From sequence record NC_054918.1: 64,000 bases of DNA; one strand, 5' to 3'. The notes under the pieces are model-generated. The model was not told the DNA's origin. It ran no database searches and saw nothing but the letters and a program-made list of their open reading frames with translations. A program made the translations under genes and the position numbers. Source of the stretch: Escherichia phage vB_EcoM_G4498. Shown here in pieces: positions 1 through 32,992 of this stretch (position 1 is the stretch's first letter; every line of letters begins with the position of its first letter).

Positions 1-2178
1 TTAGGCCGCAAGGGCCTTCATAGTTTTAGCGATTTGGGAAACTTCATCATCACTCAAAGAGTTGCGATAACCGATGAAGTCGGAAACAATACGGAATTTC
101 TTGGTAAACTCAGCAACCATTTTATCACTGTTTTTTGAAGCATTATTTGATAATACATCAAAAAGATTAGTTACTGTCCAGATGTCATGACCGATGGTAT
201 CTTTTCCACCATTAAAATATACACCGCGCAATGAACTAACTATATTAGCGAGTCGTGTATATTCTTCAGAAACTTCATCTGTACTGAAGTACTTCATCAT
301 AAAATCTAGTTCAGGATACTTGATAATTTTATCAATATATCGTTGAGCTGAACTTGAATAACCTACGTACTTATCATAATCTACATCATCAAAAGCATCT
401 ACATATAAATCACGCAGAGTTTCAAAAATACATTGGCACTGACCGAGTTCTTTTACCTTTTTCTGCAAAAGCGGACGAATAACATAAAACTCATTAATGC
501 CAATAAGATTAGCCATACGAATCAAAATATTCATAGATGGATGACAAAGAGATGTAGTACCATCCATAGAGAAAATATCAGAACGATGCATATACGCTAC
601 ATACCCAGTAATTTCATCTGCTTCTGATGTGAGCGTAAATAATTCCTCTTTTTCCCAGCGCCCGTCTTTAATTTCAAACTTAAATGCTGTAGCAGCTTTA
701 GGACGAGAAGCTTTACTTTTAACTACCTTTGGAATATAGCTTTTAACTAAAGCTTCAATTTCTGACAAATAATGAATGTTAACTTCATCACTTTCAAACA
801 TCGCCATAATATCAGGAAGTAAATCAATCTGCGATTCTACTTCTGGATTAATAAACAGAAGACGCTCATTATGATGAATATTCAAAGTGTTATTAAATTC
901 ACTATCATCTAACGCTCGTGCTAATCCACGAACAATATTAACACGATTTTTAATATTATCAATAACGATATTAATTTTTGTTGTATTAATACCAAACAGA
1001 CGATAACTTGATGCAACGGCTGAAGTTTCATGACTTTGCTTAATGCGCTTCAGTCGAGGGTCAAGATTTACTTCATACACAACTCCTGCATTACATAACT
1101 TATTGTCAGGTTCAAACATGCTCTGCATCTTTTTATATGACAGATTTTTAGTCGTGAATTTGACTGAATTACTAATCATATAATCTCGAGCAGAATATCC
1201 CATCTTCATCAATTCACGATATGTGTGACGAGGAGATGTAGATTCTTTAAATCGTTTTACATCTTCATTAAATGCTTTCTCACTGAGTTCTTTAACTCGT
1301 TCAATAATATTTTTACGAGTACGATCATCTAGTGAAAGAGCTTCGCGTGATGGAGCAATATCAAGCGAACCCATTGGAAACTTAATGTAATTCACTTCAT
1401 TACGAATGCTTAGCCAGTTACGGTCTTTAATAACACCATCGATAGGATAAACAATACCGCCATAGATAGCATATAATCCACCACGATCAGGCCAGTATCT
1501 TTCTGGATTTATGCCGTAATAATCATCAAAATCCGGAAAATAATCAATTTCGCGGTCAAGACCATTAATGATAGCCAAATCTTTGAATGGTCGCATGATA
1601 TAAGAAACTTCATAAGCAAAGTTTCTAAAGTCTTTTTCTTCAACTGGAACTACGATTTCAATACCAGTTTTATCATCTGGACCCATTTCTTTTACGAATG
1701 TAGGTTTAATCTGTGGACCATCACCATCCATGTAAGCTACATAACCACGAATTTCACCTTTATGATACGAAGTAATACTAAATGTATCAGTATAACTAAA
1801 CGGAGATTTAGAACCTAAACCAAACCCGCCAATAAAGTCATTAGATTCAGCCTTAGATGAACTGAAGTATGAATTATATAACCCAGGAGAATTATCATCA
1901 CCCTGAATATCAAAATCACTCATACCCGGACCAAAATCTCGACAAACAAATCGCGGATCTAATCGTCCTGGAACTTGTATGATAAATTTTTCAGGATTTC
2001 CATTAAGTGCATGGGCATCAATCATATTAGTAATTAATTCACGGACTACTGCACGAATCTTGTTTGTATACAAATCAGATGACAGAATTTTAAATACTTT
2101 AGGAGATGCTGTGATGCTAAATGCTTTTGATTTAGAACCATTGCCAAGAATTGTTTCTTTTTCAGTGGTGATAATCAT
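1..2178 (-). CDS. rIIA: rIIA membrane-associated protein (rapid lysis / lysis-inhibition locus), complete 725 aa
   Basis: 725-aa ORF, same length as T4 rIIA and at the same genome position; stop codon is at window positions 1-3. Identified from memory of the T4 protein. Confidence 0.85.
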
Positions 2179-2188
2179 AATTTCCTCA

Positions 2189-2392
2189 TTAATTCATATT
2201 ACGCTTAATAACTTCAGCAACTTCTAGTAATTCATCTTTAGTTGCAGTGTCGGATTGAATTTTATCTCTAATATCTTTAAAGCGGTTTTTAAATTCTTCG
2301 GCTTCTCCCATATCGAAAAAGCGTTGAATGATTCTATATTCTCGATGAACTGCTTTATCAAAAAGTTCTAAATTTACTTTATATGATTTCAT
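2189..2392 (-). CDS. small hypothetical protein (rIIA.1 position)
   Basis: 67-aa ORF directly downstream of an early promoter and upstream of rIIA; synteny only. Confidence 0.5.
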
Positions 2393-2414
2393 TTCAATAT
2401 CCTCATTTGCCCAA

Positions 2415-2448
2415 TTAATTATACCACATCCTTGTGGTAAAGTAAACT
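2415..2448 (-). promoter_or_regulatory. early (sigma70-type) promoter
   Basis: Minus strand reads GTTTAC-N17-TGGTATAAT (plus strand: attataccacatccttgtggtaaagtaaac). Confidence 0.7.
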
Positions 2449-4267
2449 ACTGGCTCATCCATTCTTTACGAAGGTCAGCATTATCTCCCATGAGCATTTC
2501 AAAAAGCTCTTTCCAGTTCTCAGGAAGTTTAACAACATCATATACTGGATTTTGAATCATCTCACGATATTCAGATTTTTCCAAAGAGCCAAGTCCTTTA
2601 ATATAACGGATGCTATGTTTAGGTAGAGCATCTTTAGCACTCTCATATTCAGCGACTGTATAAAACCATTCTTGTTTTTTACCAATCTGTGCGATGATTA
2701 CAGGAGTTTTGACAAAGCGAATTCGTCCTTGCTCAAACAGTTCTGGCCAATTACTAAAAAATCCAAGCAGAGAAGGATAAATGCTTCCTAGACCATCATG
2801 GTCAGCATCAGTCATAATAGCAATATTATGATAATTCAAGTTTTCAGCTTTTTCACCGAGAACTAATCCAGTGATTGCGCAAATATCAAACAGTTCTTTG
2901 TTTTTAAGCATGTCAGCATATGACATACCCCAACTGTTGAGAACTTTACCACGTAATGGATAACCACCGTGAAGTTCTTTATCACGAACATCAATAAGAT
3001 ATCCGATAGCCGAATCACCCTCAGTCAAGAAAAGAGTAGTATCAGCATCTTTACCACAAAGATTCGCTTTAATATGTTTATGAACCTTAGCTTTAGAAGC
3101 CTTTTTAGCTGCTTTAGTTTCTGCTGCTTTTTCTGCCGCCAATTTACGAGCCAAAGCAGCTTCAATAATCGGCATTAGAATTGCTTCATTATTTAGAATA
3201 GCGCGTGAAATCTTTTTAGCATCAAGTTGAATATGACTACGAATTTCGCCAAATGGAGAAGTCAAACGCTCTTTAGTTTGAGAATCAAATCGCATGTTTT
3301 TCATATCACGAACAAACATAACGATAGTCAAACATTCTTTAACACGCGCTTTAGTTACATCAATTTTGAACTTACGTTTGATTTGTGGAATAAGGTCTTC
3401 ACAAATATCATCCATAACACAGTCAATGTGATGGCCACCATTCTTAGTGTGAATGTTATTGACGTATGTTAATTGACGAAAACCATCCGGTGAACGACCA
3501 ACCGCAATAGAACAATTTTCTTGTTCTTGAACAATAGCATGCTCATCATATTGGCGTGCATATTTCTTAAAATTGCCCTGAACCTTTTTACCATTAAAGG
3601 TAAATTGAATATCAGGATAAACAACAGCAAGTGTCTGGAGACGATCTAATGTAATGTCAAGATAAACTTGAGATAATTCATTAGTTTCAAATGACATAAA
3701 ATCTGGAATGAAAGTAACACGAGTTCCTTTCCATTTTCCAGGAATAGTTTCCCATGATTTATTTTCCATGCCATTTGAACAACGAACTACAATATTATTT
3801 TGACCATCGCCAGTTTCACCGACAAACATCACAGAAAAAATGTTAGTTAAACTAGAACCAACACCATTCATACCACCGGTGACGCGTTCTTTATCATCAC
3901 CAAAGTTACCACCTGCTTTTGGAATAGTCCACGCAGCAACTGGACCAGGAATTTCTTCACCGGTAGGTGTTTTGACCATCGCTTGTGGAATACCACGACC
4001 GTTATCTTCAACTGTTACTTGATTGTTTTTAATAGTAACATTAATTTTATTTGCGAATTTAAACTTAGTACGAATACCTTCATCTACTGAGTTATCGATA
4101 ATTTCATCAATAAGCTTAACAAGACCAGGTACATACTGAACACTTTCCCATTTACCAAACAGAAAGCGCTCATGCATTTCATTAGCGGAAGAGCCAATGT
4201 ACATGCCGCTACGCTTTTTGATATGTTCAATATCGCTCAGAATTTTAATTTCATTCTTAATCATCAC
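2447..4267 (-). CDS. 39: DNA topoisomerase II large (ATPase, GyrB-like) subunit, unsplit 606-aa form
   Basis: 606-aa ORF with GHKL ATPase region (EDNGRGIP, GGMNGVGSS) and TOPRIM-like region (LFLTEGDSA, DADHDG); single continuous frame. Confidence 0.9.
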   Translation of the reverse strand: MMIKNEIKILSDIEHIKKRSGMYIGSSANEMHERFLFGKWESVQYVPGLVKLIDEIIDNSVDEGIRTKFKFANKINVTIKNNQVTVEDNGRGIPQAMVKTPTGEEIPGPVAAWTIPKAGGNFGDDKERVTGGMNGVGSSLTNIFSVMFVGETGDGQNNIVVRCSNGMENKSWETIPGKWKGTRVTFIPDFMSFETNELSQVYLDITLDRLQTLAVVYPDIQFTFNGKKVQGNFKKYARQYDEHAIVQEQENCSIAVGRSPDGFRQLTYVNNIHTKNGGHHIDCVMDDICEDLIPQIKRKFKIDVTKARVKECLTIVMFVRDMKNMRFDSQTKERLTSPFGEIRSHIQLDAKKISRAILNNEAILMPIIEAALARKLAAEKAAETKAAKKASKAKVHKHIKANLCGKDADTTLFLTEGDSAIGYLIDVRDKELHGGYPLRGKVLNSWGMSYADMLKNKELFDICAITGLVLGEKAENLNYHNIAIMTDADHDGLGSIYPSLLGFFSNWPELFEQGRIRFVKTPVIIAQIGKKQEWFYTVAEYESAKDALPKHSIRYIKGLGSLEKSEYREMIQNPVYDVVKLPENWKELFEMLMGDNADLRKEWMSQ

Positions 4268-14895: not shown

Positions 14896-14927
14896 TATTA
14901 TACCATACTCATTTTGGAAAGTAAACC
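14896..14927 (-). promoter_or_regulatory. early promoter
   Basis: Minus strand GTTTAC-N17-TGGTATAAT. Confidence 0.7.
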
Positions 14928-14941
14928 GTTTAAATGAAAAA

Positions 14942-14961
14942 AGGACTCCCGAAGGAGTCCT
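14942..14961 (-). terminator. rho-independent terminator after soc
   Basis: AGGACTCC-cgaa-GGAGTCCT hairpin followed by a U-run on the minus-strand transcript. Confidence 0.7.
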
Positions 14962-14966
14962 TGAAT

Positions 14967-15212
14967 TTATTCACCAGTTACTTTCCACAAATCTTCATTT
15001 GCAGCAATCCATTCAGTACGTTGATTTTCTTCATATACTGTAGAATATGCTGCTTTTTCTGAAGGGAATGTCTGGTAATGTGCACCAGAAATTTTGTGAA
15101 CGTCAGAATAAAGAGGGAAAGCTACGGAAATTTCCTTTCCTTCAATTTTCTTATTTCCATCTAATTTCTGCTCAAATGTTTTGATATTAACATAACCGCG
15201 AGTACTAGCCAT
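14967..15212 (-). CDS. soc: small outer capsid protein Soc
   Basis: 81-aa ORF MASTRGYVNIKTFEQK... matches T4 Soc as I remember it. Confidence 0.9.
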   Translation of the reverse strand: MASTRGYVNIKTFEQKLDGNKKIEGKEISVAFPLYSDVHKISGAHYQTFPSEKAAYSTVYEENQRTEWIAANEDLWKVTGE

Positions 15213-15242
15213 GTAATTCTCCTTTTATTTAAATTACATGAT

Positions 15243-15250
15243 TATTTATA
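15243..15250 (-). promoter_or_regulatory. late promoter (TATAAATA) for soc
   Basis: Minus strand TATAAATA about 30 nt upstream of the soc ATG. Confidence 0.65.
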
Positions 15251-15280
15251 ATAAATTCTCGCGGCTTTTAAGACGAGCTG

Positions 15281-15799
15281 TTAATAACCTCGGTCTTGAC
15301 GAGCGAAATTTTCAGCATTTTTCAGATAATAAAGTTTAAAGATTTCTTCTGCTGTAAGACCAAGACCTTGAAACATGTTCAGAACAAAATGGAGAATATC
15401 AATCATTTCGAATTTGATTTCTAACTGGTCCTGTGGAGACAAATCAGTAATCAGAGTTTCACGACGTTCACCATGCTGAGCTTTCCACGGCTTCCATACA
15501 GCAGATGCATCTTTTTCGCCATTACTCATACCACCAAGAGAAGTCAGAAGTTCGCGGAATTCATCATCAATATAATCTTTCTGATTACGCAGCCAATCAA
15601 CAACTTCACCTGCAGTAGCCAAATCATCAGGATGACGGTTATATTCAGGTTTATCTTTAGCTAAACGAACTTGCAGAGATTTCTGCATATCAAGCATTAC
15701 CTGCAGCGGGTCTTTTTCATCACCGAGAATATCCCAATATTCATTTTGAGCTTTATCAGCGCCTTCGATCAGTTGACTACATTCGTTGAAATGTGGCAT
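15281..15799 (-). CDS. 56: dCTP pyrophosphatase (dCTPase/dUTPase, MazG-like)
   Basis: 172 aa; size and position of T4 gp56. Confidence 0.8.
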   Translation of the reverse strand: MPHFNECSQLIEGADKAQNEYWDILGDEKDPLQVMLDMQKSLQVRLAKDKPEYNRHPDDLATAGEVVDWLRNQKDYIDDEFRELLTSLGGMSNGEKDASAVWKPWKAQHGERRETLITDLSPQDQLEIKFEMIDILHFVLNMFQGLGLTAEEIFKLYYLKNAENFARQDRGY

Positions 15800-15800
15800 G

Positions 15801-16451
15801 TTATTTTTCCTTTCTTATGAAGTTTTCTATCATATGTCTATAGCAGATATTAGGATAACCTGCCTTGACAGCTATTTTATTAAATTTTGTGCGCTTAGGT
15901 CTATTATTATAAACCCATAATTCATAAAGCGCATCATAACTATTCCATATTTCTCCTCGCCTAGGATTTGGTAAACCATATCGAGGTGAATTTTTACCGC
16001 TAAATCTTCCTTTTCGGGCTTTACTCATATTAGCCTTGGCTTCATCGGATATAATTTTACCTTTATGAGCTAGACGCATTTTGGCTTTAGTTTCTTCTGG
16101 GGTCTTTTTGCCTTTAATCCATGACGGCTTGCCATATCTAGGATTATTTTCACCCGAGAAAAGAACAGAGTTTTGGATTTTAAGGGTTTCTATTAATCTA
16201 CTTGTTAATTTAACACCTTTATTATATCGCATTAAATTTACAGCATAATGCAATCCTCTCACATCTGGATATATTTTAGTTAATAATCTATGAGCTATAA
16301 AATGCTCACGCGCAGTTAACTCAACAAGATTGTTTTTGTCATCTGCTCCTCCTATACATCTAGGAATTATATGATGGCGTTCTTTATATCCGCCAAGATG
16401 CCGGCATTTAGCTTTTGTAATTAAAGCCGAGTAAATTTTTTGGTAATTCAC
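15801..16451 (-). CDS. HNH homing-endonuclease-like protein
   Basis: 216 aa; HHIIPRCIGGADDKNNLVELTAREHFIAH HNH motif; NUMOD-like GENNPRYGKP / GKNSPRYG repeats; GTG start with SD AAAGGA. Confidence 0.75.
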   Translation of the reverse strand: MNYQKIYSALITKAKCRHLGGYKERHHIIPRCIGGADDKNNLVELTAREHFIAHRLLTKIYPDVRGLHYAVNLMRYNKGVKLTSRLIETLKIQNSVLFSGENNPRYGKPSWIKGKKTPEETKAKMRLAHKGKIISDEAKANMSKARKGRFSGKNSPRYGLPNPRRGEIWNSYDALYELWVYNNRPKRTKFNKIAVKAGYPNICYRHMIENFIRKEK

Positions 16452-16483
16452 ATATATCCTTTCAATTCATGGGTTAGTAGATT

Positions 16484-16508
16484 AATTATACAATAAATAT
16501 ATAAAGCA
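16484..16508 (-). promoter_or_regulatory. MotA-box middle promoter upstream of the HNH gene
   Basis: Minus strand TGCTTTA - 11 bp - TATAAT. Confidence 0.5.
16492..16499 (+). promoter_or_regulatory. late-promoter-like element (AATAAATA)
   Basis: 7/8 match to TATAAATA, about 22 nt upstream of the plus-strand small ORF. Confidence 0.35.
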
Positions 16509-16521
16509 ATAAGGAGGACAT

Positions 16522-16722
16522 ATGGTACAAAAATTAATGGCACTTGTTAATGCCATAAAAGGTAATAAGAAACGTATAGCTTTTACTATTTCTGCTATGG
16601 TAGGAATTTTACTCTGGAACTTTATTTTATCACCTGTTGCAATTGCACATGGTATTAATATTCCAGTAGTTACTCTTGATACATTCGTAGATTTAGCATT
16701 TGCTTTAGTTGGGTTAATTTAA
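16522..16722 (+). CDS. small hydrophobic (membrane) protein, plus strand
   Basis: 66 aa; strong SD AAGGAGGA 6 nt upstream; hydrophobic segments; convergent with gene 61. Confidence 0.5.
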   Translation: MVQKLMALVNAIKGNKKRIAFTISAMVGILLWNFILSPVAIAHGINIPVVTLDTFVDLAFALVGLI

Positions 16723-17747
16723 ATCTTAGCATATTTAGATAGCCGCATTTTAGCCATCAACCCCTGGGCAATATTATTTTTCATATATTCCATAATTTGT
16801 TCAGGGGTTGCACCTTCCTTTCTAATCATATCATTAACATCTTTTGATTTCCAGGGAGATTTATCCCAAAACATAACCCTTTCTCCTACATCAACTAATT
16901 TAGTCATTCGCTTGATAGTGTCAGGGTGACGAGGTTCATTATCTAAAACCCACACTCGTCTATCTTTAAATGGAACAACTTCTAGGTCTAATTGACCACC
17001 CGTAATAGCTATACCATTTTCAATAAAAAGTGAATCTATAGGTCCTTCTAGAACATATACATCACCATCTTTAACTCGTTCAACACCGTAAATTTTTGTT
17101 GCCTCAGGATAAGCTTTAATGGTGATATATTTTTGAGGAGCATCTTTCTTTAATGCACGTCCTTGAAAAGACTCAGCTTTTCCATTAGCATTATAAATTG
17201 GAATAACAAGACGAGGCTCAGAAATTTCCTTTTTGTATGTTCCCGGTGCTATGCTATTAACTAATTTAGGCCATTCGGTTGTAAACCAAAGATATTTCCA
17301 TTTATCCTTTGGAATACAACGAGCTTTTACATATTTTATAATTGGATGGTCTTCCGCCAGTTTATCTAATCTAACACATGACGGAAGAGATTTAATTATT
17401 TTCTTCTCAGGTTGCTTAGGAAGTTCTTTAGGTTTTTCTACTGGACGACTTTTACCTTTTTCTTTTCTTATTTCAAAAATATACTCACGATATAAATCAG
17501 GTTCAAACTCCTTTAAATATATTCCGATTGGTGCATGATAGTTACAGTTATAACAATGAATATTTCCTTCATTATTATCGCCGTAATACCATCCACGGGC
17601 TTTATTTTGGTCGGTTTTTGAATCTCCACAAACAGGGCATCTAAACCGTAATTTAAAAGTTGAACTATTATTTACTTGTGTGAATTTAGGTAAATGAGCT
17701 AGCGCACGGTATGCAAACTCATTATCAATCCAAGGTATTGATGACAT
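16719..17747 (-). CDS. 61: DNA primase
   Basis: 342 aa (T4 gp61 length); N-terminal zinc ribbon CPVCGDS...CYNC; TOPRIM-like core. Confidence 0.9.
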   Translation of the reverse strand: MSSIPWIDNEFAYRALAHLPKFTQVNNSSTFKLRFRCPVCGDSKTDQNKARGWYYGDNNEGNIHCYNCNYHAPIGIYLKEFEPDLYREYIFEIRKEKGKSRPVEKPKELPKQPEKKIIKSLPSCVRLDKLAEDHPIIKYVKARCIPKDKWKYLWFTTEWPKLVNSIAPGTYKKEISEPRLVIPIYNANGKAESFQGRALKKDAPQKYITIKAYPEATKIYGVERVKDGDVYVLEGPIDSLFIENGIAITGGQLDLEVVPFKDRRVWVLDNEPRHPDTIKRMTKLVDVGERVMFWDKSPWKSKDVNDMIRKEGATPEQIMEYMKNNIAQGLMAKMRLSKYAKI

Positions 17748-17749
17748 TT

Positions 17750-17914
17750 TTACTCTTCTTTTTCTTTAGATTCCTCTTTTTTCTTTTTAGGAATCTGTTC
17801 AGGACCTTTATTTACTACAGCGCCTGATGCTGTTCCAGTAGAGATATTTTCAGGATTACCACCTGAATCTCCAGCGACCATATCTTCTTTGATAAATTCT
17901 TTATATGTTTTCAT
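17750..17914 (-). CDS. small ORF (54 aa) with capsid-targeting-sequence-like N-terminus
   Basis: Not in ORF track (<60 aa). ATG 17914 with SD GAGGT; translation MKTYKEFIKEDMVAG...EKEE; N-terminus resembles MKTYQEFITE of the ip gene at 63049-63522. Confidence 0.45.
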   Translation of the reverse strand: MKTYKEFIKEDMVAGDSGGNPENISTGTASGAVVNKGPEQIPKKKKEESKEKEE

Positions 17915-17915
17915 A

Positions 17916-18542
17916 TTAACCTCTATTCATAAAAGCATTAAAAATTTGGTCATCAATAGAAACATTCACTTTAGACTGTTTTTCTGATGGTAATTCATAT
18001 CCACATATTACAATTTTATGATCAATATCAAAATACACAGAAGCAATATGATTAATGATGTTTTCAGTAAAGTCTAAATCAACATCAATATCTTTTTGAC
18101 CACAGCCCAAAGGATAAATAATGCGAGTAATTCGATTATCTTTAACAAAGATTCCACCGATATACTCTGTGCTGCGTTCAAAGTCTACACGCCGACGAAA
18201 TGAAAAATATTCAGGCTCTTTATGAGCTCGGCTCATAGGACACAACGAGTAACTAGAATAAGAGATGTCAAATCCTACGCCTTCAATATGAGCCAAATTA
18301 TCATGATTAAACCAATTATAATCGTACGCCAAGTCCATTAGATTATAATATGTGAAAGGCACCGGATTAACATCACTAGTCGCAAGCATGTAATTAGCAA
18401 CTGCTATAATTTCGTTGTTTTTAACGAATACAAACCGCGATTGATGCGAATGACCTGGACCTGCGTTTTCACGATTAATGATATAACACTGGGCACCTTT
18501 ATATTTGTACGTGTCTTTGCACTTGTGCATTTGATAAAGCAT
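17916..18542 (-). CDS. hypothetical protein (61.1 position)
   Basis: 208-aa ORF. Confidence 0.55.
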   Translation of the reverse strand: MLYQMHKCKDTYKYKGAQCYIINRENAGPGHSHQSRFVFVKNNEIIAVANYMLATSDVNPVPFTYYNLMDLAYDYNWFNHDNLAHIEGVGFDISYSSYSLCPMSRAHKEPEYFSFRRRVDFERSTEYIGGIFVKDNRITRIIYPLGCGQKDIDVDLDFTENIINHIASVYFDIDHKIVICGYELPSEKQSKVNVSIDDQIFNAFMNRG

Positions 18543-32234: not shown

Positions 32235-32242
32235 TATAAATA
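32235..32242 (+). promoter_or_regulatory. late promoter TATAAATA driving the plus-strand HNH gene
   Basis: Exact TATAAATA 34 nt upstream of ATG 32276; SD AAGGA. Confidence 0.6.
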
Positions 32243-32275: not shown

Positions 32276-32992
32276 ATGAATTATAAACTAATTTATGAAA
32301 AGTTAATCTCTAATGCTAAATCTCGAAAACTTGATTGCTATACTGAATCTCATCACATTATACCACGCTGTTTAAACGGTAGTGATGATGCTTCAAACTT
32401 AGTAGATTTAACGCCAGAAGAGCACTATGTAGCTCATCAACTTTTAGTAAAAATTTATCCTTCTGAACCAAAATTAGTCTATGCTGCTAACATGATGACA
32501 GTTTCCACGAAATACGCTAAACGCAACAATAAAACTTTCGGTTGGATTCGTCGTAAACTCTGGGAAATAGAAAAGAACAAAGAATTCTCCCAGGAGACAC
32601 GAAAGAAAATGTCTGATGCAGTAGCTAATAAAGCAAGACTAACTTGTCCTCATTGCGGTAAGTCTGGATTAAGCGGGAATATGAATCGTTGGCATTTTGA
32701 TAACTGTCCAAATCACCCTAATCCTAAAGTTAGACCACCATTGTCTAAAGAACACAGAAATAATATCTCAAACGGGCTTAAAGCAATCGTTCTTGAAGAA
32801 ACATCCTGCGAATTCTGTGGAATGATAGGCAAGAAATGCGTTATCGCAGCGCATAGAAATTTCTGCAAGAAAAATCCAAATGGACGCAAGAAAACTGAAA
32901 AGACTGGTACTTGCGTCCATTGTGGTAAAGTTACCACTTTCGGAAATTTATCAAGATGGCATAATGATAACTGTAAATATAAACCTAGCTAA
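32276..32992 (+). CDS. HNH homing-endonuclease-like protein, plus strand
   Basis: 238 aa; HHIIPRCLNGSDDASNLVDLTPEEHYVAH; repeated CxxCG...W-H-x-D-N-C zinc-finger modules; N-terminal ~70 aa paralogous to the 15801-16451 HNH protein. Confidence 0.75.
   Translation: MNYKLIYEKLISNAKSRKLDCYTESHHIIPRCLNGSDDASNLVDLTPEEHYVAHQLLVKIYPSEPKLVYAANMMTVSTKYAKRNNKTFGWIRRKLWEIEKNKEFSQETRKKMSDAVANKARLTCPHCGKSGLSGNMNRWHFDNCPNHPNPKVRPPLSKEHRNNISNGLKAIVLEETSCEFCGMIGKKCVIAAHRNFCKKNPNGRKKTEKTGTCVHCGKVTTFGNLSRWHNDNCKYKPS

Follow-up and report, generated by a model that had tools for sequence, protein, structure and literature searches.

Organization of the locus between genes 56 and 61

The window analyzed here is a 64,000-nt stretch of the genome of Escherichia phage vB_EcoM_G4498 (NC_054918.1). 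On its minus strand, the interval between gene 56 (dCTPase/dUTPase) and gene 61 (DNA primase) holds a single gene, a predicted homing endonuclease gene of 216 codons with a GTG start (hereafter HE), whose stop codon ends 1 nt ahead of the gene 56 ATG. On the plus strand lies a 66-aa ORF (orf66), which converges on gene 61 so that the stop codons of the two overlap (Table 1). An earlier sequence-only reading of the locus had listed the HNH ORF with its GTG start, a minus-strand TGCTTTA–N11–TATAAT element upstream of it, a plus-strand late-promoter-like element (7/8) with a strong Shine–Dalgarno (SD) sequence, and the tight packing of these signals, back to back, into a spacer of 70 nt; all of them were recovered, the minus-strand element at 16508–16485 in agreement with the MotA consensus.

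Table 1. Features of the gene 56–61 region of the window.
Feature	Coordinates	Strand	Comment
Gene 56 (dCTPase/dUTPase)	15281–15799	−	Directly downstream of HE; presumed HE target; Pfam dUTPase_2, 1.1e-6
HE-linked gene 56 start allele	15766–15803	−	...TAAC ATG CCA CAT TTC AAC GAA TGT AGT CAA CTG ATC G
HE (216 aa, GTG start)	15801–16451	−	Predicted free-standing Mob-family HNH/NUMOD3 homing endonuclease gene
Downstream GAAAGGA	15808–15814	−	Gene 56 SD, within the last codons of HE (…R K E K stop); from alignment with AR1 and T4
Upstream GAAAGGA	16457–16463	−	Originally the gene 56 SD, now the HE SD; same junction in Tequatrovirus and Jiaodavirus
MotA-type middle promoter	16510–16485	−	tATTGCTTTA 16510–16502, N11, TATAAT 16490–16485
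AATAAATA	16492–16499	+	Late-promoter-like, 7/8 of TATAAATA, for orf66
SD AAGGAGGA of orf66	16511–16518	+	
orf66 (66 aa)	16522–16722	+	Predicted small membrane-protein gene; phrog_2024, 1.4e-31, full length
Intrinsic-terminator-like hairpin	16527–16556	−	8-bp stem, 4-nt loop, T-run
Gene 61 (DNA primase)	16719–17747	−	Upstream flank

The HE protein belongs to the Mob family

Profile searches of the HE protein against Pfam yielded NUMOD3 in two stretches (8e-7, 29.3 bits at a cut-off of 20.4) and HNH at 0.0019, with a score of 18.8 bits slightly below the gathering cut-off of 21.4, and no methylase family; PHROG 655, “homing endonuclease,” matches at 1.3e-59. The protein aligns over its full length with MobD of RB9 (35% identity, E = 2e-35, 247 aligned columns), including a common C-terminal block W..YD.LY.LW...NRPKR..F....GYP, and its N-terminal part (residues 1–165) is 45–46% identical to MobE. 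Residues His26, His27, Asn41, His50, and His54 are invariant in an alignment of 35 sequences, forming the motif HHIIPRC...N41...EH50..AH54; in the AlphaFold (AF2) model, residues 24–60 form two strands (24–27 and 42–45) followed by a helix (47–60), with pLDDT above 90. The C-terminal region 169–215 consists of three helices, a feature common to MobD, and structure searches with the HE model gave no significant match.

Judging from these similarities, the 216-aa ORF encodes a Mob-family homing endonuclease and is an intact, free-standing gene; its product is composed of an N-terminal HNH nuclease, NUMOD3 repeats, and a predicted C-terminal helical DNA-binding module as in MobD. The assignment as a free-standing HNH homing endonuclease, already proposed in the sequence-only reading, is strengthened by the NUMOD3 and PHROG 655 matches and by the homology to MobD and MobE. 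The traits of the Mob family seen in HE are the HNH motif, homology to named Mob proteins, a modular DNA-binding region, a free-standing, intergenic, co-oriented, and host-promoter-reliant organization, and a sporadic distribution with linked flanking polymorphisms. A Dam-like function of the protein was considered and rejected: it contains no (D/N/S)PP(Y/F/W) motif, hence no DPPY, and no Pfam methylase match.

In GenBank, 57 phage records already label HE as “homing endonuclease,” and one record calls it “putative mobile endonuclease D”; a literature search found no experimental study of HE or its site.

HE separates the gene 56 SD from the gene 56 start codon

The insert of ~649 bp lies between the gene 56 SD, GAAAGGA, and the gene 56 ATG. 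Comparison with the Jiaodavirus locus puts its upstream border at 16455/16456, the inserted DNA starting at 16456. In AR1, a phage lacking HE, alignment with the window places the gene 56 ATG directly after GAAAGGA. The window gp56 is of the AR1/T2 type, being 98–100% identical to gp56 of AR1 and FL08, and only 74% identical, at the protein level, to gp56 of T4.

The predicted middle promoter belongs to gene 56

MotA-dependent promoters were defined by the box (a/t)(a/t)(a/t)TGCTT(t/c)A located ~11–13 nt upstream of a sigma-70 −10 box TAnnnT, with no −35 box. The core TGCTTTA at 16508–16502 of the minus strand, extended to tATTGCTTTA, agrees with the consensus of the MotA box. A search of the window for the relaxed pattern TGCTTNA–N11–13–TANNNT gave 16 occurrences, compared to 4.8 expected, and none of 100 shuffled sequences reached 16; a pattern scan found no other MotA-type motif inside the insert. 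The records of fPS-90 and fPS-2 label the site at 16510–16485 “predicted middle promoter.”

The window matches AR1 base for base over the whole stretch that runs from the orf66 start to GAAAGGA and takes in the MotA box, the −10 box, and the leader; in dam-containing phages, a different MotA-box promoter, annotated P(M)16.53 in T4, occupies the same position. Since the sequence is the same in HE-less AR1, where it directly precedes gene 56, the MotA-box promoter is predicted to be the resident promoter of gene 56, corresponding in position to T4 P(M)16.53, and not a promoter of HE itself. The sequence-only reading had credited HE with “its own middle promoter”; this does not hold, given the identity to AR1 and the insert border downstream of the promoter, and a cassette-borne promoter is rejected by the alignments with AR1, T4, and ELT1 and with the Jiaodavirus locus.

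The terminator-like hairpin is located downstream of gene 61, antisense within the 5′ end of orf66, and the fPS-90 and fPS-2 records annotate it as a terminator. We also considered whether the HE ribosome-binding site (RBS) is hidden in read-through transcripts, where CAUAUGUCCU, antisense of the orf66 RBS, pairs over 10 bp with AGGAUAUAUG, the HE RBS and start, in the minimum free energy (MFE) fold. This candidate was unsupported, the read-through MFE fold being no better than that of shuffled sequences (z = −1.45, 17 of 200 shuffles); the HE RBS is free of structure in the short transcript that would start at the middle promoter (z = 0.03).

The 66-aa ORF is a resident gene

The hydrophobic ORF converging on gene 61 proved to be a real gene: besides the match to phrog_2024, it is under purifying selection, with pN/pS of 0.15 and variable sites distributed over the three codon positions as 9/3/16. 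The hydrophobic segments span residues ~18–45 and 45–66; no Pfam or NCBIfam match was found. A total of 691 phage records contain it, in every case next to the primase gene, whatever the HE or dam status, and it is also present, unannotated, in T4. Because it is found in T4 and ~690 records independently of HE and dam, orf66 is, by its conservation, a resident gene of a predicted membrane protein and no part of the HE insert, which speaks against a cassette including the small membrane ORF. In T4, this conserved gene of a small membrane protein, located between dam and gene 61, is missing from the reference annotation. In the databases, orf66 is named only “hypothetical protein,” apart from one automatic UniRef label “Holin.”

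For late promoters of T4, dependent on gp55/gp33, the −10 sequence TATAAATA was used as the criterion. The octamer AATAAATA is depleted genome-wide, with three sites in the window compared to 14.7 expected; therefore, its presence at 16492 is not a composition effect. The element NATAAATA is kept 8–13 nt upstream of the SD in most orf66 lineages, among them Tequatrovirus, the Dhakavirus type, and several others; variants of the TATTAAATA type occur in a few orf66 lineages and the perfect TATAAATA in two (L014/L015).

HE and dam vary independently

The sequence-only reading placed T4 dam in the 56–61 interval and interpreted HE as a cassette at a DNA-modification locus, replacing dam. The former was borne out, as dam indeed lies between 56 and 61 in T4. 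The latter was not, as all four combinations of the two genes exist in sequenced relatives: T4 has dam without HE, ELT1 has both, AR1 has neither, and the window has HE without dam (no dam homologue was detected in the 64-kb window by tblastn with T4 Dam). IME537, like ELT1, carries both dam and HE. Since ELT1 and IME537 have both genes and AR1 has neither, HE is not a replacement of dam; on the sequence comparison, the two were inserted or deleted independently of each other, one on either side of the promoter, and HE goes with gene 56 rather than with dam. Thus, the presence or absence of dam is a polymorphism unrelated to HE.

Distribution of HE and the linked allele of gene 56

HE was found in only 57 phage records, compared to 761 records matching the region. 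It is located directly upstream of gene 56 in Tequatrovirus, Jiaodavirus, and Dhakavirus, with identical junctions in the first two. Identity between the window and Jiaodavirus DNA is 40–75% in gene 61 and orf66, jumps to 93–100% exactly at the insert border (16455), and drops ~35 nt into gene 56, where it goes from 98–100% in the HE-linked start allele to 67–80% just past it; the same comparison reveals internal mosaicism within HE.

The gene 56 start allele linked to HE (Table 1) is present in the window and in 10 out of 10 other HE-containing Tequatrovirus and Jiaodavirus loci; if Dhakavirus-type loci are included, the agreement is 12 out of 12 at the Ser8 codon (AGT). Most HE-less Tequatroviruses have A ATG GCT TAC TTT AAC GAA TGT TCA, and the HE-linked allele, at 95.6% identity or higher, occurs in only ~5–7 of ~240 HE-less records. 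HE-less Jiaodaviruses natively carry the same gene 56 5′ allele as the HE-containing phages. We read the HE-linked tract of ~35 nt, from these alignments, as a putative co-conversion or target-immunity tract; as the allele is native in HE-less Jiaodaviruses, the linkage in Tequatrovirus favors co-conversion, with such a phage as the donor, and does not pinpoint the immunity determinant. For the same reason, an attempt to read the target site off the differences in gene 56 between HE-containing and HE-less phages was abandoned.

Discussion

Taking all this into account, we consider it probable that a mobile, promoterless HE gene has been inserted between the resident promoter and SD of gene 56 and the gene 56 start codon, and that it spreads by homing, the latter by analogy with known systems. 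The anatomy suggests that HE transcripts would start at the gene 56 middle promoter, resident and MotA-dependent, just before which stands the terminator expected to end gene 61 transcripts, and that HE would be translated via the captured SD and the GTG start. A regenerated copy of the SD would be passed to gene 56, and, with the ATG 1 nt past the HE stop, the essential dCTPase would therefore remain expressed. The Dhakavirus-type variant (L017, L062) lacks an SD, and its ATG stands only ~6 nt past the −10 box; hence, expression from this promoter is not universal. The locus may serve as a clean natural case in which an endonuclease gene lacking a promoter took over a host SD and rebuilt one for the essential gene downstream.

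By analogy with MobE and nrdB or SegF and gene 56, in a mixed infection HE would nick or cut, in the HE-less genome, a site within or close to the 5′ end or the leader of gene 56, and recombinational repair from the HE-containing genome would copy HE together with the flanking tract, approximately the first 35 nt of gene 56. The true target of HE could nevertheless lie elsewhere than in the gene 56 5′ allele, because MobE, SegF, and SegG cut 100–300 bp from their own genes.

The strongest competitor to this ongoing homing, in our opinion unlikely, is that HE is stranded or domesticated and no longer homes, being kept because an imprecise deletion would be lethal or because it serves the phage through exclusion of competitors or recombinogenic nicks near oriA. 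The position of HE between the promoter and SD and essential gene 56 would guard it against deletion, as argued for mobE and nrdB (PMC2790892), a low and tolerated expression would agree with the weak GTG start and the close coupling to gene 56, and, as HE-less Jiaodaviruses have the “HE-type” allele of their own, many potential recipients could be uncleavable. On the other hand, the ORF is intact with every invariant HNH residue present, the DNA is 93–100% identical across genera whose flanks are 40–75% identical, the junctions are precise and the same in two genera, and the internal mosaicism points to continuing exchange.

Much less credible is the spread of HE by ordinary homologous or illegitimate recombination in co-infection, its own nuclease playing no part. 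Recombination is very active among T4-like phages, insertion or deletion could proceed by microhomology through the 7-bp GAAAGGA repeat present at either end, and the few HE-less phages with the HE-linked allele fit precise loss through this repeat. However, three genera carry HE at the same site, its identity borders are sharp, and its presence goes closely with that of a short flanking tract; such borders and linked tract are a signature of endonuclease-driven gene conversion in MobE, SegF, and SegG (PMC2790892; PMC2988022).

The displacement of dam at a DNA-modification locus by a self-contained cassette, made of HE, its own middle promoter, and perhaps the membrane ORF, draws on the location of T4 dam in the same interval and on a good MotA-type promoter being the nearest one upstream, with HE the first gene after it, but it retains hardly any probability and is already refuted by the four-way presence/absence pattern, in which ELT1 and IME537 hold dam together with HE, apart from the fact that the promoter and leader are the same in AR1, lacking both genes, that the insert begins downstream of the promoter, and that orf66 occurs regardless of HE.

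Two further consequences can be considered, both of them speculative and rather improbable. According to the T4 annotation, oriA is located 22 nt inside gene 56. The transcript from the MotA-dependent promoter of gene 56 is thought to prime replication at oriA, and recombination-dependent replication has been reported for the oriA region. As HE is inserted directly downstream of this primer promoter, the promoter is 651 bp away from the original origin DNA in HE-containing phages; hence, oriA could be inactivated or moved in these phages, or HE nicks near gene 56 could feed recombination-dependent replication. Separately, HE might home across genus and host-range boundaries, because the 93–100% island is shared with Klebsiella-infecting Jiaodaviruses and the examined HE-containing Tequatrovirus loci have the Jiaodavirus-type 35-nt tract. 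This cross-genus identity island is a ready system for studying inter-genus homing and the length of co-conversion tracts.

Comparison with known systems

The predicted middle promoter resembles T4 P(M)16.53, the promoter of gene 56 (“69”) and of the oriA primer, in its location directly upstream of the conserved gene 56 leader ATGAATTGAAAGGA and in its arrangement of a MotA box, spacer, and TATAAT, the spacer being 11 nt here and ~13–14 nt in T4. It differs in sequence, dam-less phages having TTGCTTTA–N11–TATAAT and dam-containing T4 having TTGCTTA, a longer spacer, and TATAAT, and in that 651 bp of the HE gene separate it from gene 56 in the window.

Among proteins, MobD of T4 and RB3 type, encoded at the nrdC.11/mobD.1 locus, aligns with HE over the full length and shares the N-terminal MNY.K.Y...HHIIP..GG.D..NLV.LTAREHFIAH; it differs in locus and size (259 aa compared to 216 aa), and the central region of HE is formed by two NUMOD3 repeats.

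The closest parallel in organization is T4 MobE, located between nrdA and nrdB, which has a homologous N-terminal HNH part (~46% over residues 1–165), is free-standing, promoterless, co-oriented, and directly upstream of its presumed target gene, and is accompanied by flanking polymorphisms linked to its presence (PMC2790892). MobE nicks the 5′ region of its downstream gene (PMC2790892), and most T4 mob and seg genes are promoterless cassettes relying on host promoters (PMC2988022). The two differ in the C-terminal DNA-binding part, in the site (nrdA/nrdB for MobE, the gene 56 leader for HE), and in the location of the host promoter, embedded in the mobE 3′ end and upstream of HE, respectively; unlike MobE, no internal terminator was found on the HE coding strand. 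HE changes the field little, adding one more probable Mob-family homing endonuclease in line with the T4 mob/seg paradigm.

Finally, T4 SegF, a GIY-YIG/HNH hybrid encoded between 56 and soc, is like HE free-standing and abuts gene 56, on its 3′ side; it is of an unrelated family, with no detected similarity to HE, and segF is absent from the window. As gene 56 is the documented target of SegF (PMC2988022) and the presumed target of HE, the comparison shows gene 56 to be a recurrent landing site of homing endonucleases, HE probably being the second one, unrelated to SegF, to use it.

Organization of the Locus

The window comes from a T4-like phage (Tequatrovirus), and its region 15200–17800, matched by 761 phage records, is 99.0% identical to Escherichia phage FL08. 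The sequence-only reading had placed a 216-aa HNH protein between genes 56 and 61, where it put dam in T4, and both points hold: the homing endonuclease gene (HE) is present, with 1 nt between its stop codon and the gene-56 ATG, and the T4 record has dam between 56 and 61. The gene segF, next after gene 56 in T4, is absent from the window at gene 56. Gene 56 is strongly mosaic inside Tequatrovirus: gp56 of the window is 74% identical to that of T4 and 70–71% to those of two relatives (loci L040 and L046), vs. 98–99% for the adjoining gp61. In Yersinia phage fPS-2 (L059 1–71, record 14912–15748) and PYPS2T-type phages, all with HE, the 3' end of gene 56 shares 11 nt with a gene for a 278-aa "hypothetical protein," whose position and overlap are those of segF in T4; thus, gene 56 of these phages may be flanked on both sides by mobile genes.

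Features of the window around gene 56, and identity of segments to the Jiaodavirus locus
Feature	Coordinates	Strand	Remark
soc	14967-15212	-	
TATAAATA, perfect	15243-15250	-	just upstream of soc
gene 56, dCTPase	15281-15799	-	62-82% identity beyond 15736
HE, 216-aa ORF	15801-16451	-	GTG start
second GAAAGGA	15814-15808		closes insert
HE 3' end	15915-15796		98-100% identity
HE central NUMOD3 part	16155-15916		77-82% identity
HE 5' part	16455-16156		93-100% identity
first GAAAGGA	16463-16457		insert is 3' of it
TATAAT, -10 box	16490-16485	-	
AATAAATA	16492-16499	+	
tATTGCTTTA, MotA box	16510-16502	-	
AAGGAGGA	16511-16518	+	
orf66, 66-aa ORF	16522-16722	+	ATG at 16522
terminator-like hairpin	16556-16537	-	with T-run
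gene 61, primase	16719-17747	-	
gene 61, orf66, spacer	17747-16456		38-75% identity
TATAAATA, perfect	32235-32242	+	ahead of second Mob-like ORF
second Mob-like HNH ORF	32276-32728	+	

The Endonuclease Family

Judged by its sequence, the HE protein is a member of the Mob family. It matches PHROG 655 "homing endonuclease" (1.3e-59), Pfam NUMOD3 (8e-7) and, slightly below the gathering score, HNH (0.0019), and 2453 database proteins match it at E ≤1e-10. In tblastn against phage genomes, MobE is 45–46% identical to it over residues 1–165 and MobD ~35% over the full length; pairwise with RB9 MobD (E 2e-35), the HNH N-terminus is common to both, as is the C-terminal block W..YD.LY.LW...NRPKR..F....GYP. 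Residues H26, H27, N41, H50, and H54 are invariant in a 35-sequence alignment. In the AlphaFold model (pLDDT 78), residues 24–60 form a confident strand-strand-helix, and two NUMOD3 helices are present along with a three-helix bundle at the C-terminus; whole-chain structure searches gave no significant match, and hence the HNH assignment rests on sequence. The protein has no DPPY-type motif, the Dam signature that the earlier reading had named as counter-evidence. A total of 57 GenBank phage records name the gene "homing endonuclease," "mobE" or "mobile endonuclease D"; our literature search turned up no paper, experimental or descriptive, that deals with it.

The second Mob-like ORF and the HE protein are 36% identical over residues 1–164, and the window has only four perfect late-promoter octamers, among them the TATAAATA ahead of this ORF.

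Insert Borders and Promoter

The minus-strand element earlier taken for HE's own middle promoter, TGCTTTA and TATAAT separated by 11 nt, is present, but an alignment of the 61–56 interval from the window, FL08, ELT1, AR1, and T4 indicates that it is resident. AR1, which has neither dam nor HE, is identical to the window all the way from the orf66 start across the MotA and -10 boxes and the leader ACTAACCCATGAATTGAAAGGA, directly after which stands its gene-56 start, AAAATA ATG GCT. The window has an insertion of 649 bp 3' of GAAAGGA, and the second GAAAGGA, inside the last HE codons (…R K E K stop), serves as the gene-56 SD. With a resident promoter upstream, HE is therefore a promoterless insert that would use the host promoter, as is usual for the mob and seg genes of T4 (PMC2988022; PMC2790892).

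In the dam+ phages T4 and ELT1, another MotA-box promoter stands immediately behind dam, ahead of the same ATGAATTGAAAGGA leader; the old T4 record X01416 annotates it as P(M)16.53, with mot-box, -10 box, and SD ahead of "gene 69" (now genes 56 and segF) "spanning an origin of replication." The window has 16 sites of the relaxed middle-promoter pattern vs. 4.8 expected by chance. The terminator-like hairpin lies upstream of the middle promoter, and the fPS-90 and fPS-2 records already annotate both.

In read-through RNA from gene 61 (16400–16570, minus strand), CAUAUGUCCU (antisense of the orf66 RBS) could form a 10-bp helix with AGGAUAUAUG (HE RBS and start), and a middle-promoter transcript would begin within the loop, its HE RBS free; this fold is no better than that of shuffled sequence (z -1.45).

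Relation to dam

The locus had also been read as a homing-endonuclease cassette at a DNA-modification locus; the free-standing endonuclease stands, while the tie to dam does not. The 64-kb window has no dam homologue, and all four states are found: dam without HE (T4), both (ELT1, IME537), neither (AR1), and HE without dam (window, FL08), with 184 phage records carrying dam and 57 HE. The promoter separates the dam insertion/deletion, upstream, from HE, downstream. These comparisons indicate that dam is a polymorphism independent of HE, and that HE is attached to gene 56. In IME537 (L060), an extra 186-aa hypothetical ORF (2123–2683, minus strand) between dam and orf66 adds yet another insertion/deletion to this interval.

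Distribution and Possible Donor

HE appears to be, or to have recently been, mobile; its distribution is sporadic, and it forms an island of cross-genus identity. Directly upstream of gene 56 it is also found in Klebsiella Jiaodaviruses, where identity is 92.6% in protein and 90.8% in DNA, in Dhakavirus UGJNEcP3 and VR5-type phages, at 78%, and in an IMG/VR contig. The Jiaodavirus junctions are those of the window, …TTGAAAGGA / TAT(A/C)TGTG … AAGAAAGGA / AAAATAAC ATG, and in a sliding-window profile against the Jiaodavirus locus, identity shifts abruptly at the borders of the insert (see the table). The Dhakavirus variant shows the opposite pattern, the central part being 90–92% identical and the HNH part diverged; HE is therefore internally mosaic.

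In the Dhakavirus-type loci L017 and L062, the HE ATG is ~6 nt past the -10 TATAAT, without an SD, so that a middle-promoter transcript could hardly be translated into HE; this variant would have to be expressed in another way, or it may be silent. IMG/VR contig 2974741249_000001 (L038/L051) has a rearranged locus: its HE copy (81% identity) lacks the first 16 codons, gene 56 is represented by two partial or diverged copies (54% over the full length and 90% from residue 39), gene-61 matches are fragmented, and a further NUMOD-like fragment lies downstream. The arrangement may be a scar of homing or repair, or an artefact of assembly.

The window and all 10 other HE+ Tequatrovirus/Jiaodavirus loci examined share the gene-56 5' allele …TAAC ATG CCA CAT TTC AAC GAA TGT AGT, of which Dhakavirus-type HE+ loci have only the AGT serine codon. 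Most HE-less Tequatroviruses have …TA ATG GCT TAC TTT AAC GAA TGT TCA, the same serine codon being switched from TCA to AGT, and a match to the HE-linked allele at ≥95.6% over 91 nt is seen in only ~5–7 of ~240 HE-less records. HE-less Jiaodaviruses carry it natively, and thus the simplest reading is that HE reached Tequatrovirus from a Jiaodavirus-like donor, probably with a co-conversion tract of ~35 nt. The allele does not locate the HE cleavage site.

The 66-aa ORF

The plus-strand AATAAATA, SD AAGGAGGA, and membrane-protein ORF (orf66) noticed earlier are all present. A conserved resident gene, orf66 matches phrog_2024 (1.4e-31) and is carried by 691 phage records, in every case next to the primase gene; its conservation extends through the Tevenvirinae lineages sampled, with homologues of ~50–57% identity in other genera. 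T4 has an intact copy (97%; L004 3239–3436, plus strand; T4 record ~17738–17935), with its own SD and GATAAATA upstream, in the 309-bp dam–61 gap that is unannotated in the RefSeq record. Within Tequatrovirus, pN/pS of 0.15 and 9/3/16 variable sites by codon position indicate purifying selection. Hydropathy predicts membrane segments at ~18–45 and 45–66, and homologues in the lineages sampled have a basic N-terminus, then …WN…P.A…G..LP; no functional name exists for the protein.

Upstream of the homologues' SD stands NATAAATA in most cases, TATTAAATA-type variants in a few, and perfect TATAAATA in two loci (L014, L015). Both TATAAATA (4 vs. 10.8 expected) and AATAAATA (3 vs. 14.7) are depleted in the window, which makes AATAAATA a plausible candidate late promoter of orf66. 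The TATAAATA upstream of soc fits a soc late promoter.

Comparison With Known Systems

The insert borders are mapped exactly; HE reuses the SD resident there and would be transcribed from the resident promoter. On the model of MobE/nrdB and SegF/56, HE would act in co-infection on genomes that lack it, nicking or cutting them within or close to the leader or 5' end of gene 56, and repair would then copy in HE with a short flank. The endonuclease is of a well-known kind, Mob, and its landing site is new.
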